NCBI GenBank assembly: GCA_002328465.1
Contig: DCUE01000065.1
Location: 143 to 25,680 of the forward strand
Direction of reading: 5' to 3'
Source: Candidatus Dojkabacteria bacterium UBA2222
Lineage (GTDB): Bacteria > Patescibacteriota > Dojkabacteria > SC72
DNA length: 25,538 nucleotides
Shown: positions 3,842-24,938 of the stretch, in pieces
How positions within the stretch are numbered: position 1 is the stretch's first letter
Layout: each line of letters opens with the position of its first letter
Translations under genes and position numbers: made by a program
The notes under the pieces: model-generated
Seen by the model: only the letters and a program-made list of their open reading frames with translations
The model's database searches: none
What the model was told of the DNA's origin: nothing

Positions 3842-4531
3842 CTAAATCTCTTCAAATGGTATGTATTCACCATATGTCATAGAGTCTAGCTTGCTCTGTT
3901 TTCTAATATCTCTATATAATACTTTCTCTTGCAGAAGAATAAATATAGCATCTTTATCTGCACCATCAAGAAGTAGTATTAAAGATCTTGGGTATCTAAG
4001 TTTTGTTTCTACAATAAGAAAATATTGCCCATTCTTAATCGAAAACCAGAAAGCATCCAGTACAAACCATTCATACAGCTTTCCTCCAGTATCAACTCCC
4101 CTAGCAGTAATCTTATGTTTAACTTTTAAGGGTTTGTTTGTACCAGCAACATAAACAAAAAACAGCAAAGATATTATTGCTGCCATTAAATAGTACTGCT
4201 CCAGAATTGCTAAGAACAGGACAAATAGGAGGGAAATGGAAAGTATAATCCAAAAGTTCTTTGACTTAAATTCAAATTTGTATCTCTCTGGAGACTCCCA
4301 CTCAAAAAGTTTAATATTTTGAATAACTCTTTTCGCTGGAATATCACTTTCTTCTAGAACAATATCCTTCTCCGCAATCTTTTTCCTAAATTCCACTTTC
4401 TGTTTTCTCTTTGCTTCCTCTTTTAGCTTGGTAAGCTTCTCTTCTCTCTCTCTTAGTTGCATTTCCCCTGAAAGAATATTCATAATATCACTAAATTCCG
4501 CTTTTATTGTTTTCTTAGTATCAATTGCCAT
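3842..4531 (-). CDS. Conserved CPR-type membrane protein (DUF5673-like), two TM helices
   Basis: FEWESPE..TM-TM..KITARGVDTGGKLYEW..LDAFWF pattern recalled from widespread Patescibacteria proteins. Charged N-terminal extension. Confidence 0.6.
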   Translation of the reverse strand: MAIDTKKTIKAEFSDIMNILSGEMQLREREEKLTKLKEEAKRKQKVEFRKKIAEKDIVLEESDIPAKRVIQNIKLFEWESPERYKFEFKSKNFWIILSISLLFVLFLAILEQYYLMAAIISLLFFVYVAGTNKPLKVKHKITARGVDTGGKLYEWFVLDAFWFSIKNGQYFLIVETKLRYPRSLILLLDGADKDAIFILLQEKVLYRDIRKQSKLDSMTYGEYIPFEEI

Positions 4532-17918: not shown

Positions 17919-17924
17919 ATCTTT

Positions 17925-17933
17925 ATTATATCA
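17925..17933 (-). promoter_or_regulatory. Extended -10 TGATATAAT, 6 nt before the rnj ATG (predicted leaderless)
   Basis: Plus ATTATATCA; spacing puts +1 on or next to the A of ATG. Confidence 0.6.
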
Positions 17934-17960
17934 AATGTATCGAAAATACTGTTGATATTA

Positions 17961-18037: not shown

Positions 18038-20278
18038 ATGAAAAACGACATTTCTAAGACATTTGAAGAAAAGGAAAAGGAAATATTCACCCTCTGGGAG
18101 GAATCTGGATTCTTTAACCCAGATACAATGAAGGCACTTTTGAAAGAGGATGCGAAGGAACCTTTTACAATATCATTACCTCCACCAAATGCTAATGGGA
18201 ATTTACATCTTGGACATATGTGTGGTTACTCTTTTCATGATGCAATAGGGAGATATATGAGGATGACAGGACACCCTACTCTACTTCTTCCTGGAAAAGA
18301 TCATGCAGGTATTCAAACGGAAACAGCCTTTACAAAAGAGTTAGAGAAAAAAGGTAAGAACAAATGGGATATGGGAAGAGAGGAATTCTATAAACAGTGT
18401 TACGAATTCTGTATGAAGAATGCCTCCAATGCAAGAGATCAGGAGAAAAACATTGGATTAAGTGCCGATTTTAGCAGAGAGTTTTTTACATTAGATCCTA
18501 GACTAACAGAAACGGTATATGAAACCTTTGAGATGATGTTTAGAGAGGGGATGGTTTACAGGGACAAGAGGATTGTAAATATATGTCCTTACTGCAAGAC
18601 TGCATTAGCAGATATAGATACGGAGCATGAAGAGAGGAGAGGTATTTTTGCATATATTAAATATCCACTTGTTGGGGAAAAAGATAAATACATTATGGTT
18701 GCTACTACTAGACCTGAGACTATGTTGGGGGATACTGCTGTAGCAGTTAACCCAAAGGATGATAGATACAAAGAGTATATAGGGAAGAAAGTGATTCTCC
18801 CGATACAAAATAAAGAGATTCCAGTAATTGCGGATGAATCTGTAGACATAGAAGTAGGCACGGGAGCTCTAAAGGTTACTCCAGCCCACTCTCCTGTTGA
18901 TTTCGAATTAGGTATTAAATACAACCTTGAAGTTGTTAATGTAATAGACGAAGAAGGCAAAATGACTGGTAATATCCCAGAGAAGTACAAAGGAATGGAT
19001 ACACTTCAATGTTCTAAGGAATTGTGTCAAGACTTAGATAGTTTGGGTCTTTTAGAAGAGATTAAGAATATTAAACATGAGGTAGCAATTTGTGAAAGAT
19101 GCAAAACCCCTGTTGAACCTGTTATTTCAAATCAGTGGTATATAGATGTTAGTAATTTAGCAAAAGAAGCCCTAAATGCTCTCCATTCAGGAGAGGTAAG
19201 AGTTATTCCCGAGGGCCAACAGAAAGCTTTAGAGTTCTTCTTTGAAAATATTAGACCTTGGTGTATTTCGAGACAACTGTGGTGGGGGCAGAGGATACCC
19301 GTTTGGTATAGCGGGGGAAAGAAACTGTACGATTGGTTACAAGAGAACAAAGGGAAAACGGTTAAAGATTTCGAAAAAGAATTTAACCTAAAAGTTATTG
19401 GAGATGGAAGCATTTATATTGGTGAGAACATCCCAAAAGAGGGTGCAGGATGGGAACCCGAAACAGATATGTTTGATACGTGGTTTAGTTCAGGTCAATG
19501 GCCATACTCTACTCTCGGAGGACCAAGTGGAGAGGATTTCAAAAAATACTATCCTACTCAAATGATGATTCATGCAAGAGATATTCTTTTCTGGTGGTCA
19601 GCAAGGATGTTAATGTTGGGAATATATAGGACGAAAGAGGTTCCATTTAAAACAATCTTTCTTACAGGAATGATTCTTGCCCCTGATGGTTCTAAGATGT
19701 CAAAAAGTAAGGGTAATGGAATTGAACCTCAAGAAGTTTTTGAGAAATATGGGGCAGATGCTCTTAGACTTTGGTATTACTCCGATGCTCTTCCAGGATC
19801 AAACGCTCCAATCAGAGAAGAGAAAATAAAGGGTAATAGAAATTTTGTAAATAAGATATGGAACGCTAGTAGATTCATCCTTATGAATATCGATGATGCG
19901 GAGGTTGATGCCGTTAGGGAAGAGGTTGTAGATATGGAAACCGAAAGGATAAAAGAAACAGAGGTACATATCCAAAAGGTTTCGAAATATCTTAGTAAGT
20001 ATCAATTCAATCTCGGAGCAGAGGAAATTAGGGAATTTTTCTGGCATAAGTTATGCGATGTATGGATAGAAGAAATCAAATCAGAGATACAGGATAAAGA
20101 AGTGGGCTCTAAGGAGAGGGTCTCAAGACTTACAGAGCTTTTGTATATTCTTAAGCAGAATTTAAAAATAATGCACCCCTTCATTCCGTTTATTACAGAA
20201 TCCGTATGGCAGGAATTAGTAAAGCTAAAACTGACAGAGGGGATTTTGATGGGTGAACAGATTCAAATATCAGAGTAA
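18038..20278 (+). CDS. valS: Valyl-tRNA synthetase lacking the C-terminal coiled-coil arm
   Basis: PPPNANGNLHLGH (HIGH), PGKDHAGIQT, ATTRPETMLGDTAVAVNP, GTGALKVTPAH, WCISRQLWWG, DTWFSS and KMSKSKGN. Ends shortly after HPFIPFITE. Confidence 0.97.
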   Translation: MKNDISKTFEEKEKEIFTLWEESGFFNPDTMKALLKEDAKEPFTISLPPPNANGNLHLGHMCGYSFHDAIGRYMRMTGHPTLLLPGKDHAGIQTETAFTKELEKKGKNKWDMGREEFYKQCYEFCMKNASNARDQEKNIGLSADFSREFFTLDPRLTETVYETFEMMFREGMVYRDKRIVNICPYCKTALADIDTEHEERRGIFAYIKYPLVGEKDKYIMVATTRPETMLGDTAVAVNPKDDRYKEYIGKKVILPIQNKEIPVIADESVDIEVGTGALKVTPAHSPVDFELGIKYNLEVVNVIDEEGKMTGNIPEKYKGMDTLQCSKELCQDLDSLGLLEEIKNIKHEVAICERCKTPVEPVISNQWYIDVSNLAKEALNALHSGEVRVIPEGQQKALEFFFENIRPWCISRQLWWGQRIPVWYSGGKKLYDWLQENKGKTVKDFEKEFNLKVIGDGSIYIGENIPKEGAGWEPETDMFDTWFSSGQWPYSTLGGPSGEDFKKYYPTQMMIHARDILFWWSARMLMLGIYRTKEVPFKTIFLTGMILAPDGSKMSKSKGNGIEPQEVFEKYGADALRLWYYSDALPGSNAPIREEKIKGNRNFVNKIWNASRFILMNIDDAEVDAVREEVVDMETERIKETEVHIQKVSKYLSKYQFNLGAEEIREFFWHKLCDVWIEEIKSEIQDKEVGSKERVSRLTELLYILKQNLKIMHPFIPFITESVWQELVKLKLTEGILMGEQIQISE

Positions 20279-20335
20279 AAAGAAAAGAGATGGAGGGAAT
20301 CTAAGACGTAAGTCAAAAAACGGATTCCCTCCATC
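20277..20335 (-). terminator. Intrinsic terminator-like hairpin for minus-strand transcription (metG/small ORF)
   Basis: Perfect 13-bp stem GATGGAGGGAATC (20289-20301) / GATTCCCTCCATC (20323-20335), inner GAC-GTAA-GTC, then minus-strand TCTTTTCTTTTT. No U-tract on the plus strand. Confidence 0.7.
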
Positions 20336-20348
20336 ATTGCAATAGCTG

Positions 20349-20498
20349 TTAGCCATTGCGCCTAAAAACTGGATCACCTCCTTTCTTTTTCCCAACGGAT
20401 GCCGTAGGTTTCTGTTTTTTCTTCTCTTCCTCCTTTGAGGCTTGAGAAGTGAGCTTCCCCGTTGGGGGAGTGAAAGAGAACGCGATGTCTTTAGCCAT
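20349..20498 (-). CDS. Unannotated 49-aa basic small protein MAKDIAFSFTPPTGKLTSQASKEEEKKKQKPTASVGKKKGGDPVFRRNG
   Basis: Hand-translated open frame ATG 20498 to TAA 20349. Perfect SD AGGAGGTGA (20509-20501) just upstream, terminator downstream; below the ORF-track length cutoff. Could instead be, or overlap, a structured RNA. Confidence 0.5.
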   Translation of the reverse strand: MAKDIAFSFTPPTGKLTSQASKEEEKKKQKPTASVGKKKGGDPVFRRNG

Positions 20499-20553
20499 GT
20501 TCACCTCCTGGTGTCTTTATACCAGAAAAGAAAATCTTTGGAAATACTTGATG

Positions 20554-22293
20554 TTATTGACTTAATATTTTCTCAAAAAGAATCGTTGGGGGATTAAGAT
20601 TTTTCCCACCTTCTAATTTATTGAAAGACCACTTGTCTTCAAATCTTGTTACTATTCCACTTGTTTCTAGCTCTTGGTTGGCATCATATTCTTCATCTAT
20701 ATTTAACATGTCAGAGAGTTTCTTAGAGCTATTTGGGGTAAAAGGTTTTAATAATATTCTTAATGCATTGACTAGCTGGATGGAGTTATACATCGTGTTG
20801 TTACAATCATCTATATTTTCTTTGAAGGAAACCCAGGGAGCTTTATCATTAAAATATTTGTTTGAATAGTCTCCGAACTTTAATAGGGATTCGCTTGCCT
20901 TAACGAATTCACATTTTTCGATATGATGACCAATCTCTTTGAAAGCTTTATTTATTGAATCTTCAACCTCTTTCTCTAATTCTCCCTTAGGTATTTTGTT
21001 CTCAAATTTACTACTTATGAAAGTAAGGGTCCTATTTATGAAGTTTCCAAGGTTTGCAACTAATTCGTTGTTATTACAATCTATAAAATCTTTCCATTCA
21101 AATTCTCTATCATGATTCTCAGGTGCATATCTTAAGAAGAAGAACCTAATTAAATCAGGACTATATTTTTCAAGTAGAGAATCAGCGTCCATGCCAGTTC
21201 CATCTCCCTTTGACATTTTCTTCCCTTTGTAAAGAAGCATTTTGTTTGAAGGTACGTCGTATGGGAGATTTAATTTCTCTCTTTTACTTTCTCCTGGGAA
21301 TTTGTATTTTTCCCATAGGGTATCATCCTCGTATTTTTCACTGTATGCTAATATCTCTGCTGGCCATATTATTGTATGGAAGGGTGTGTTTCCTCCTGCG
21401 ATAAAGTAGTAATGTTTACAAGTGGAATCTTTCCAGAACTCTTCCCATTCACTTGGTTTTTCAATATTTTGTGCCCATTCTATTGAAGCAGAAAGGTATC
21501 CAACAACTGCTTCTATCCATACATATATTACTTTCTCTTCCCAACCCTTTACTGGCACGGGAATTCCGAACTTTAAATCTCTAGTTACCTCCCTAGCTTC
21601 CAAGCCCTCCTTGAGCCAACCTTTTGAGAATTCTCTTACCCATTTTCTCCAATCACTGCTACTTTCTTCAACCCATTTAGCAATCTGGGGTTCTAATTTC
21701 TTCAAATCAAGATAGAAGTGCTCAGTTTCTTTCAAAACAGGTTTCGTATCAGAGAGTGTACTATATGGGTCAATTAAATCTTCTGGTTTTAGGAATTTAC
21801 CACATTCTGGACACTCATCCCCTCTTGCATTTGTTGCTCCACATTCTGGACACGTACCTCTTACATATCGATCGGGAAGGAATTTACTTACTTTCTCATC
21901 ATAGTACTGCTTTGACTTCTGTGGATACAGATATCCTCTTTCTTTCAGTACTAAGAAAATATTTTGAACAACATTTTTATGATTCTCTGTAGTTGTTGTA
22001 GTATAGTTTTCATAGAGTAAGGAGAGCTTTTTAAAAGTTTCAACTATCTCTTTATGAGATTTTGTTACTAACTCTTCAGGAGAGATATTTAACTCTTCAG
22101 CCTTAAAGAGTATGGGAGTTCCATGACTATCACTTCCAGAGACCATTAATACCCTGTTCCCCTTCTGTCTATGATATCTTGCAAAAACATCGCATGCTAT
22201 ATTTTGACCAGCCAGATGTCCTAGGTGAATCTTCCCACTTGCATATGGCCACGATACACCGATAAAGATTTTATTTGATTGAAATTTGTCCAT
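20554..22293 (-). CDS. metG: Methionyl-tRNA synthetase (monomeric type, no C-terminal Trbp/EMAP domain)
   Basis: WPYASGKIHLGH (HIGH), VSGSDSHGTPI, Zn knuckle CPECG..GDECPECG, YVWIEA, KMSKG and NELVANLGNFINR. Confidence 0.97.
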   Translation of the reverse strand: MDKFQSNKIFIGVSWPYASGKIHLGHLAGQNIACDVFARYHRQKGNRVLMVSGSDSHGTPILFKAEELNISPEELVTKSHKEIVETFKKLSLLYENYTTTTTENHKNVVQNIFLVLKERGYLYPQKSKQYYDEKVSKFLPDRYVRGTCPECGATNARGDECPECGKFLKPEDLIDPYSTLSDTKPVLKETEHFYLDLKKLEPQIAKWVEESSSDWRKWVREFSKGWLKEGLEAREVTRDLKFGIPVPVKGWEEKVIYVWIEAVVGYLSASIEWAQNIEKPSEWEEFWKDSTCKHYYFIAGGNTPFHTIIWPAEILAYSEKYEDDTLWEKYKFPGESKREKLNLPYDVPSNKMLLYKGKKMSKGDGTGMDADSLLEKYSPDLIRFFFLRYAPENHDREFEWKDFIDCNNNELVANLGNFINRTLTFISSKFENKIPKGELEKEVEDSINKAFKEIGHHIEKCEFVKASESLLKFGDYSNKYFNDKAPWVSFKENIDDCNNTMYNSIQLVNALRILLKPFTPNSSKKLSDMLNIDEEYDANQELETSGIVTRFEDKWSFNKLEGGKNLNPPTILFEKILSQ

Positions 22294-22306
22294 AATTACA
22301 ACATTT

Positions 22307-22315
22307 ATTATATCA
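22307..22315 (-). promoter_or_regulatory. Extended -10 TGATATAAT of metG
   Basis: Plus ATTATATCA, 13 nt before the ATG. Confidence 0.6.
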
Positions 22316-22395
22316 GAATATATTTTCTTCCACTATCATATGGAAAGTTTTCAAAAAACCTTATATACTGGAATAGTAATCATATACACTGCCTA

Positions 22396-23828: not shown

Positions 23829-24913
23829 ATATCAATATAGTCATCTAATTTCTTTTCAGAAGATTTCTCTTTTAATTTCTTTAATGCTTTCGCTTCTATT
23901 TGTCTTATTCTTTCTCTAGTTACTCCAAATTCTCTTCCAACCTCTTCAAGTGTTCTTGTTACACCGTCTGTTAGTCCAAATCTTAATGAAAGGACTCTTC
24001 TTTCTCTATCTTGTAAAGAATCTAAGATATCCTTTAATTGATTCTTTAGATATTCAGAGGTAGCAAAATCCTCTGGGCTTTGGGACCATTCATCTGGCAA
24101 GATATCTTGTAATTTACTATCCTTCTCGTCTCCTATTGGAGTAGCCAAAGAGGATGGATTCTGTTTAATTTTTCTAATCTCCGCTATCTTCTCTAATTCA
24201 ATATCCATTTCCTTTGCAATCTCTTCATCTGTTGGTTGTCTTCCTAACCTTGTTGTCAAAGTACCATTTACCTTATTAAACTTGTTTATAGTTTCTATCA
24301 TGTGTACAGGTACTCTGATTGTTCTAGCCTGATCTGCAATTGCCCTAGTAATTGCTTGTCTAATCCACCATGTTGCATAGGTAGAGAATTTAAAACCTTT
24401 ATGGTAATCGAATTTTTCTACTGCCCTCATTAAACCGATATTGCCCTCTTGAATTAGATCTAGAAGCTCTAATCCACTCTTACTGTACTTTTTGGCGATG
24501 CTTACAACTAATCTAAGATTTGCAGTTATTAATAACTGTCCAGCCTCTTTATCCCCATTCTCAATTCTTTTTGCAAGTATTACCTCTTCTTCTGCTGTTA
24601 ATAGGGGGATTTTACCTATCTCATATAAATATGATCTAATAGCATCTGTAGATAGACTAGATTGAATAGTTTTTAGTATTCGAATTTTCTTTTCAAGTGT
24701 TAGCTCCTCGCTATCTGTAACAATATCCTCCTCTGGTTCTAATACTTCTACATCATTTTCCTGTAACTCTTTAAAAATATCATCTAAGAGAACGATATCC
24801 TCTTCTATAGTAGGGAAAACCTCTAAGATATCTTCTTGAGAAAGAAATCCTTGCTCTTTTCCTTTTTTAACTAATTCTTGGATATGTTTTGCCTTATTTG
24901 AGGAATTACTCAT
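23825..24913 (-). CDS. rpoD: Primary sigma factor RpoD/SigA
   Basis: Region 1.1 ([10 protein letters not shown]), 1.2 ([16 protein letters not shown]), 2 ([56 protein letters not shown]) and 4 ([16 protein letters not shown]). Confidence 0.99.
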
Positions 24914-24922
24914 TATTTATTA

Positions 24923-24931
24923 TGGTATAAT
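24923..24931 (+). promoter_or_regulatory. Extended -10 TGGTATAAT, 7 nt before the ATG of the Zn-ribbon gene (predicted leaderless)
   Basis: Exact TGn-TATAAT inside the 25-bp rpoD divergent gap. Confidence 0.6.
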
Positions 24932-24938
24932 TTAATAT

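Follow-up and report, generated by a model that had tools for sequence, protein, structure and literature searches.

The window analysed here, a stretch of 25,538 nucleotides, belongs to a Candidatus Dojkabacteria assembly (hereafter G000; 736 kb in 78 contigs, 33.6% GC, 82% completeness, 4.5% contamination). In this window a gap separates metG (20554-22293, minus strand) from the convergent valS (18038-20278, plus strand), and the minus strand of the gap carries what the initial annotation described as a hidden small gene: a strong Shine-Dalgarno sequence (SD), a 5-nt spacer, then ATG and a Lys-rich frame of 49 codons closed by TAA. The sequence is as described. The question that it raises is what such a gene does in a genome where SDs are rare, and the initial annotation, by analogy with the rpsU gene of Bacteroidia, proposed that the product could be a ribosomal or hibernation factor sensing the availability of the anti-SD, a plausible candidate role. 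The public sequencing runs that contain the locus are DNA runs only, from a hydrocarbon metagenome.

Read on the minus strand, the unit begins with a -35-like hexamer, TTCCAA (20538..20543), which is weak with respect to the consensus, and an extended -10 box, TGGTATAAA (20516..20524). In nine relatives TTYCAAA is kept 16-18 nt 5' of the -10 box and TGATATAA is invariant at the equivalent position, so that the promoter is conserved as TTYCAAA-N16-18-TGATATAA across nine aligned loci; the TGG-TATAAA element suspected at 20524-20516 is thereby supported. A simple sigma-70 scan calls no promoter at the small ORF because the -35 hexamer is weak. The conserved promoter predicts a transcript start at about 20509-20513, just ahead of the first SD (SD1), which makes the mRNA start at the SD that had been suggested a probable one. 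The leader would then measure about 10-15 nt and hold little more than SD1 itself (CAGGAGGTGAAC, 20499..20510, 5-nt spacer to the ATG at 20498), whose GGAGGTG is invariant in alignment A2.

The ORF (protein P0001, core SKEEEKKKQKPT) occupies 20349..20498 on the same strand, with its TAA stop at 20351-20349. The hand-counted GC content of 47%, said to stand above the flanks, is exact (71/150 = 47.3%; the window as a whole has 34.5%, metG 35.3% and valS 37.7%). Within its KEEE codons lies an SD-like tract, AAAGGAGGAAGAG (20424..20436, minus strand), which varies synonymously among relatives and is therefore probably a by-product of coding. Closer to the stop codon is a second SD-like sequence, SD2 (GAAAGGAGGTGATCCAG, 20369..20385, minus strand), an orphan extended SD read here as the codons K-G-G-D-P, with a core of 10-11 nt that is kept in three reading frames.

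The 3' part of the unit, also on the minus strand, is formed by two hairpins and a pyrimidine tail. Hairpin A (20339..20359, 9 bp, -11.7 kcal/mol) uses the last codons as its 5' arm and has the TAA stop in its loop. Hairpin B (20289..20335), with a 13-bp stem and an inner small hairpin (20305-20314) that recurs in relatives, is likely an intrinsic terminator shared with the convergent valS, and the tail TCTTTTCTTTTTAC (20275..20288) overlaps the valS stop codon (20276-20278, plus strand). The 71-nt stretch containing hairpin B folds at -23.6 kcal/mol and is followed by the tail UCUUUUCUUUUU, rich in U and C, as in an intrinsic terminator, in agreement with the strong terminator noted earlier behind the ORF; a simple terminator scan overlooks it, its loop being longer than 8 nt. 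In all relatives the tails after hairpin B are C/U-rich, not pure U. From these predicted ends the mRNA would be roughly 240 nt long.

The placement metG|ORF|valS is constant in the family wherever the gene occurs, and the small ORF retains its own promoter even where metG is inverted (L019, L020). The interval 20275-20543 (minus strand) is best explained as a self-contained small gene comprising its own promoter, an SD-only leader, an ORF and a conserved 3' RNA module; taken jointly with the working model developed below, this explanation is given a little better than an even chance of being right.

Relatives of the small protein (26-65 aa, core EKKKQKPT) were recovered by tblastn and profile searches as conserved open frames in 40 of the 100 genomes of the family. 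At class level, 32 of 221 genomes have one, and 29 of these belong to the family. A collection of 5.8 billion proteins contains 27 clusters matching at E<=1e-4, all unnamed or "hypothetical" and devoid of Pfam domains, and ten representatives were matched in a library of 1.84 billion representatives. Selection on the frame, for which the initial annotation had suggested a dN/dS estimate, was measured on the gap-free core of 12 codons in 25 distinct sequences, the homologue set being small and its sequences related. The pN/pS ratio is 0.23 in the ORF frame vs 1.39 and 1.14 in the shifted frames, and core codon variability is 0.44 at third positions vs 0.13 at first and second positions. This shows the small ORF to be a real protein gene under purifying selection.

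The peptide contains 10 K, 2 R, 3 E and 2 D, and has no hydrophobic stretch. An AlphaFold model built on 32 sequences shows no confident fold (pLDDT 60, pTM 0.13); a model of such low confidence is compatible with a disordered basic peptide that would fold only on a partner, and proves nothing. The product is probably a Lys-rich, disordered protein of a family restricted to Dojkabacteria, and it most likely binds RNA or the ribosome, as an accessory rather than a core component.

Known families do not account for it. Neither P0001 nor any one of 32 family members has a Pfam or NCBIfam match at E<=10; no relative of the small protein was found in PHROGs, the ESM Atlas, phage records or IMG/VR; and the family profile returned only noise against PDB chains (best E 0.07, to a capsid protein). 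The initial annotation had not recognised the product as bS21, bS22 or bTHX, and it was right in this. The protein has no Ribosomal_S21 (PF01165) match, and since a normal rpsU is located elsewhere (G000:C75:15221) the small ORF is not bS21; bS22, bTHX and bL36-like tiny ribosomal proteins were rejected on the basis of zero Pfam families and no matched chain from solved ribosomes. HPF/RaiA (PF02482) was also discarded: there is no profile match, and no HPF gap to fill, a long HPF being present in G000 and in 86 of the 100 family genomes. In G000, HPF (Ribosomal_S30AE) is matched twice (C21:3585-3872 and C26:1424-1708), reflecting either a paralogue or strain mixing.

The weight to be given to SD1 depends on how rare SDs are in this genome. 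Among 549 long ORFs, an SD-like 4-mer at -20..-4 was found for 7.7%, vs 11.7% in an upstream control stretch, no positional SD peak was seen genome-wide in this set, and the G content is 10-14% throughout -15..-5 of the gene starts of the genome. In the window, GGAG or GAGG occurs at -20..-4 of none of the 24 other gene starts, and AGGA at one, so that the region is indeed otherwise SD-free. Genome-wide, listing GGAGG followed by a start codon leaves about five credible SD-led genes: rpsU, two HU genes, a 45-aa hydrophobic ORF and the small ORF. SD motifs are rare, as the initial annotation had supposed. The small ORF is not, however, the lone SD-led gene that it had taken it for: the four others carry AAAGGAGGT at proper spacing.

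In rpsU (66 aa; G000:C75:15190-15420, locus L012:1464-1692) AAAGGAGGT is followed by a 5-nt spacer. The extended form of this SD, AAGGAGGT[A/T]AAT, is found in 15 of 30 relatives, mostly of genera g1 and g2, is complementary over up to 12 nt to the 16S tail of the lineage, and is absent from the other families of the order; the comparison with Bacteroidia rpsU from which the initial annotation had started thus finds a counterpart in this lineage. The two HU-like genes (90 aa; G000:C29:2045-2330 and C34:10020-10305) have an identical 30-nt upstream stretch with AAGAAAGGAGGT and a 9-nt spacer, and the strongly hydrophobic 45-aa ORF (G000:C4, minus strand, near 19339), a small membrane protein, has AAGAAAGGAGGT ahead of it with an 8-nt spacer. 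As the HU genes are SD-led too, an SD may merely mark small, strongly expressed genes. GGAGG-N-ATG is also present in the window at 1175 (minus) and 4235 (plus), where it opens frames of 52 and 28 codons; these are located inside long ORFs (37-1278, minus, and 3842-4531, minus, the latter antisense) and look like chance occurrences.

A -10 hexamer ending 5-9 nt before the ATG was detected for 61 of 556 genes, vs a background of about 2-3 per position, and therefore many first genes of operons look leaderless; in the window, this placement is seen at 17919-17945, 16205-16230, 22294-22320 and 24910-24938. Leaderless mRNAs may be a better account of the missing SDs than a Bacteroidia-type mechanism. 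The G000 assembly contains no 16S gene, and the 16S 3' tail was read from one relative of the same genus and four other relatives in the order (L113, L014-L016, L013). The proposed inspection of the organism's own tail was thus possible only by proxy: the CCUCC core is intact in all five relatives, while the 16S of the organism itself is absent from the assembly. These tails end in GAAUUACCUCCUUU / ...ACCUCCUUU, so the anti-SD core is intact. The data show a genome that outside these few genes is SD-less and partly leaderless, in a lineage where the 16S tail still carries CCUCC. The tail of the order, GAAUUACCUCCUUU, is two transitions apart from the usual GGAUCACCUCCUUU; the SDs of rpsU fit this variant (GGAGGUAAU), and both SDs of the small ORF keep GGAGGUGAU.

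Against this background SD1 stands out. GGAGG is located 5-9 nt ahead of the start codon in 18 of 24 distinct members of the family and an SD-like 4-mer in 22 of 24, compared with 1.3% and 7.7%, respectively, at the other genes of the genome. In these 18 members SD1 reads GGAGGTGR, a long SD at the correct spacing, as expected of an rpsU-type gene.

With the 16S tail of the genus SD2 forms 12 consecutive bp, one being G.U, and its predicted tail pairing (-16.9 kcal/mol) ranks 5 among 6,688 SD-like sites in the assembly, outscored by four chance sites. To the canonical bacterial tail (GGAUCACCUCC; CUGGAUCACCUCCUUUC) SD2 is complementary over 17 nt without a flaw, a better fit than to the lineage's own tail, where one G.U and one C/A mismatch arise. 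As the fit to the tail of the lineage is the poorer one, anti-SD pairing does not account for the conserved GAUCC.

Four layouts of SD2 were distinguished. It is in frame, as GGD, at 9 loci; interrupted by an internal TGA stop at 2 loci; located 3-5 nt past the stop, in two frames, at 5 loci plus one in another family; and found about 50 nt past the stop, behind an SD-led mini-ORF of 10-12 codons, at 5 loci (L045, L046, L049, L051 and L054, of genera g10, g14 and g15), where three SDs are chained on one short RNA. The peptide of the mini-ORF is not conserved, and its stop is within 6 nt of SD2. Seven distant, short family members keep the ORF and SD1 and have no SD2. At one further locus (L043, G065:C1, ~2030-2090) SD2 is fused to the post-hairpin tail, hairpins A and B being deleted, owing either to a natural deletion or to misassembly.

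Where SD2 is read in frame, its codons AAG, AAA, GGA, GGT and GAT have third-position diversities of 0, 0, 0.39, 0 and 0, vs 0.40-0.67 in the twelve core codons. Across 120 genomes of the order AGGAGGTGATC is matched exactly 56 times. About 22 of these matches are no more than 150 nt away from the small ORF, and the remaining ones that were checked are inside ordinary coding sequence. No ATG, GTG or TTG occurs 5-10 nt downstream of SD2 in any relative, which removes an ORF starting behind it from consideration. Programmed frameshifting at SD2 was likewise rejected, since there is no slippery site and the stops differ in place and frame. The SD2 bases are kept across frames with no start codon behind them, and SD2 is thus considered as an orphan SD under selection at the nucleotide level.

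The hairpins behind SD2 were examined for compensatory change. Among 17 distinct relatives, all but one have hairpin A at the equivalent position, and its stem exists in no fewer than 8 different sequences. In the long forms of the gene a coding 5' arm is matched by a non-coding 3' arm that changes along with it. For hairpin B, 12 pairs were modelled, of which 98.6% of cells are paired, with compensatory changes at 6 pairs; its covariation surpasses every slid control and, with few or no exceptions, the 500 shuffles. Its arms are SD-like on the 5' side (GGAGGG) and anti-SD-like on the 3' side (CCCTCC), and the stem sequence itself is conserved in relatives (GGAGRG arm vs CYCUCC arm). The whole-transcript fold has z = -5.9. 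Hairpin B is not a repeated element, its arm pair being unique in the genome. That hairpin B and its tail might imitate helix 45 and the tail of the 16S was rejected by eye, only the CUCC run being alike. In Rfam searches of the whole window just three tRNAs reach the gathering score; a relaxed search of 20200-20650 on either strand gave sub-threshold noise (best 22 bits vs a 75-bit cut-off), and the loci of seven relatives gave nothing.

The plus strand, too, can fold into hairpins A and B, and at 20369-20385 it spells the canonical 16S tail. This allows the opposite strand to be considered as the functional one: a valS read-through transcript would carry hairpins B and A and then a copy of the 16S tail, GGAUCACCUCCUUUC, acting as an anti-SD mimic in the valS 3' UTR. 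On that strand, however, 11 G.U cells of hairpin B and 21 G.U pairs of the hairpin A set become A/C mismatches, so that the functional strand is the strand of the ORF. It is also the minus strand that bears the conserved promoter, SD1, the selected ORF and the pyrimidine tail, and the L019/L020 unit keeps its promoter despite the inverted metG, leaving the plus-strand reading highly improbable. On the comparative data, SD2 and both hairpins are shown to be constrained at the RNA level, with the hairpins folding on the ORF strand.

Another reading makes the RNA the main effector, an sRNA of about 240 nt whose 3-4 SD-like sites would soak up either free 16S 3' tails or a C-rich regulatory RNA, the ORF being secondary or dual. 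One short transcript does combine several SD-like motifs (SD1, the AAGGAGG inside the ORF, SD2 and, in hairpin B, the 5' arm), its fold is strong and its SD2 is nearly invariant. Against it, the core is clearly selected as protein, distant members retain the ORF and SD1 and dispense with SD2, and a quick, non-systematic look through the assembly gave no convincing intergenic RNA with paired CCUCC loops. This reading is considered very unlikely.

The GAUCC of SD2 can pair with a GGAU(C) just 5' of the start codon in some clades, at a predicted -13 to -18.5 kcal/mol; for the window the prediction is -8.0 kcal/mol, which is equalled or beaten by 12% of background start regions, and no consistent pairing of SD2 with the 3' tail was predicted. 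Being strong in some clades and not significant in the window and several others, the predicted pairing of SD2 with the start region is retained as a lead only, as far as a general switch is concerned. Together with the position of a short ORF adjoining hairpins, this possible pairing in some relatives, which resembles that of hok/aapA-type mRNAs, would speak for a leader peptide/attenuator or a type I toxin-antitoxin-like small ORF. A leader would have no gene to control downstream because valS is convergent; the peptide, hydrophilic and Lys-rich, has no hydrophobic membrane stretch and is not membrane-active, for which a type I toxin was rejected; and the long-range pairing in the window is as weak as just stated. 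The probability of this interpretation is judged next to negligible.

Presence of the element is patchy even among close relatives. In G012, G004 and G005, three genomes of the same genus (85-98% complete), only 5-40 nt separate the stop codon of metG from that of valS and the element has left no trace, and in two others (G002 and G008) it has decayed to remnants of hairpin B. All these genomes still show an SD on rpsU. Clean absence within the genus indicates that the element is accessory, dispensable and repeatedly lost, and this patchiness, combined with the presence of HPF, argues against an essential role and weakens the proposal of a ribosomal or hibernation factor.

The same distribution is in keeping with a simpler view, in which the locus is an ordinary, GC-richer, SD-led accessory mini-gene as found in CPR bacteria, the SD providing strong independent translation and SD2 arising incidentally from the KGGDP codons and from the way the terminator evolved, without any part in sensing or tethering. 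The small ORF does have the features of an SD-led, GC-rich accessory cassette (own promoter, SD and terminator, GC above that of core genes, patchiness among close relatives with clean losses), and HU genes and a small membrane protein are also SD-led in this genome. Such a by-product, however, would not be expected to keep the SD2 bases where they are untranslated or read in other frames, to freeze their synonymous sites next to saturated ones, to conserve the stem of hairpin B beyond what a terminator needs, or to have variable mini-ORFs terminate exactly at SD2. This account is considered unlikely, though with a real chance of being correct.

The working model retained here instead takes the SDs at face value. 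The mRNA would be among a handful, with rpsU, that can be started only through SD:anti-SD pairing; if initiation is possible only in this way, the yield of the small ORF would depend on how many 30S subunits have their 16S 3' tail free, as has been proposed for Bacteroidia rpsU. SD2 would be a second docking site that does not initiate translation, catching the ribosome at or after termination and holding 30S subunits on the mRNA of about 240 nt. Through such docking, ribosomes could be re-used in cis, the 3' end could be protected, or free tails could be titrated. The best clue for docking at termination is that a stop codon adjoins SD2 in four different layouts, the translated frame finishing at SD2 or just behind it. 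In its most developed form, the model regards protein and mRNA as a lineage-specific device that reads and sets the pool of ribosomes with exposed tails, SD1 being tail-dependent, SD2 parking terminating 30S subunits and the Lys-rich product acting on the 30S platform or tail, as a second counterpart of bS21/rpsU autoregulation that evolved independently in this leaderless, SD-less lineage; this specific form is speculative and considered quite unlikely to hold in full.

SDs that serve purposes other than initiation have precedents. The STAB-SD of Bacillus thuringiensis cryIIIA, located in the 5' leader, is an mRNA stabiliser that protects against 5'-to-3' decay; it is perfectly complementary to the 16S 3' end, is not used for initiation and is thought to work via 30S binding. 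SD2 is similarly an SD-like sequence not used for translation start and, unlike the 5'-leader STAB-SD, is placed beside the stop codon, where the ORF has its 3' end. A second precedent is the internal SD of the prfB programmed frameshift, which is kept in an SD-blind organism (PMC10798248). SD2 resembles the frameshift SDs of prfB and dnaX in being conserved, within a frame or where the frame ends, in an SD-avoiding organism. In contrast to them, it has no slippery site at the required distance and no conserved shifted frame, and the short and long forms of the family arise through ordinary stops and frame changes.

The closest comparison remains the rpsU (bS21) autoregulation by an extended SD in Flavobacterium johnsoniae and other Bacteroidia (PMC9976891, PMC13000453, PMC7797042), in which expression is proposed to follow the availability of free 16S tails (PMC9976891, PMC13000453). 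Of an rpsU-type gene one would expect a product that covers the 16S 3' tail and an mRNA that is translated better by ribosomes without this product. Shared with Bacteroidia are a nearly SD-free genome, a 16S with CCUCC and a gene for a tiny basic protein with an unusually long SD, and also, in the host genome and its genus, an rpsU bearing AAAGGAGGT(A/T)AAT. The product of the small ORF differs in not being bS21, contact with the 16S tail being only a candidate role for it, and the host genome differs in looking partly leaderless and in having about five SD-led genes, not one. The start-less second SD has no counterpart in the rpsU system described for Bacteroidia (PMC9976891, PMC13000453, PMC7797042). 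It is this frame-independent orphan SD, with its hairpins, that is the new part of the finding; the spare SD and the two conserved hairpins point to a putative ribosome-linked control device.

For one family of Patescibacteria the present comparison shows that core genes are SD-less and often leaderless, and that rpsU carries an extended SD in part of the family. To our knowledge, SD-blind translation with a single SD-bearing autoregulated gene (rpsU) has so far been described in Bacteroidota only. To this is added a further small protein family with an equally conserved SD and an RNA-constrained orphan SD, which current annotation leaves nameless or uncalled. If SD2 binds 30S subunits, the locus would be a compact natural mRNA that uses a start-less SD at its 3' end.
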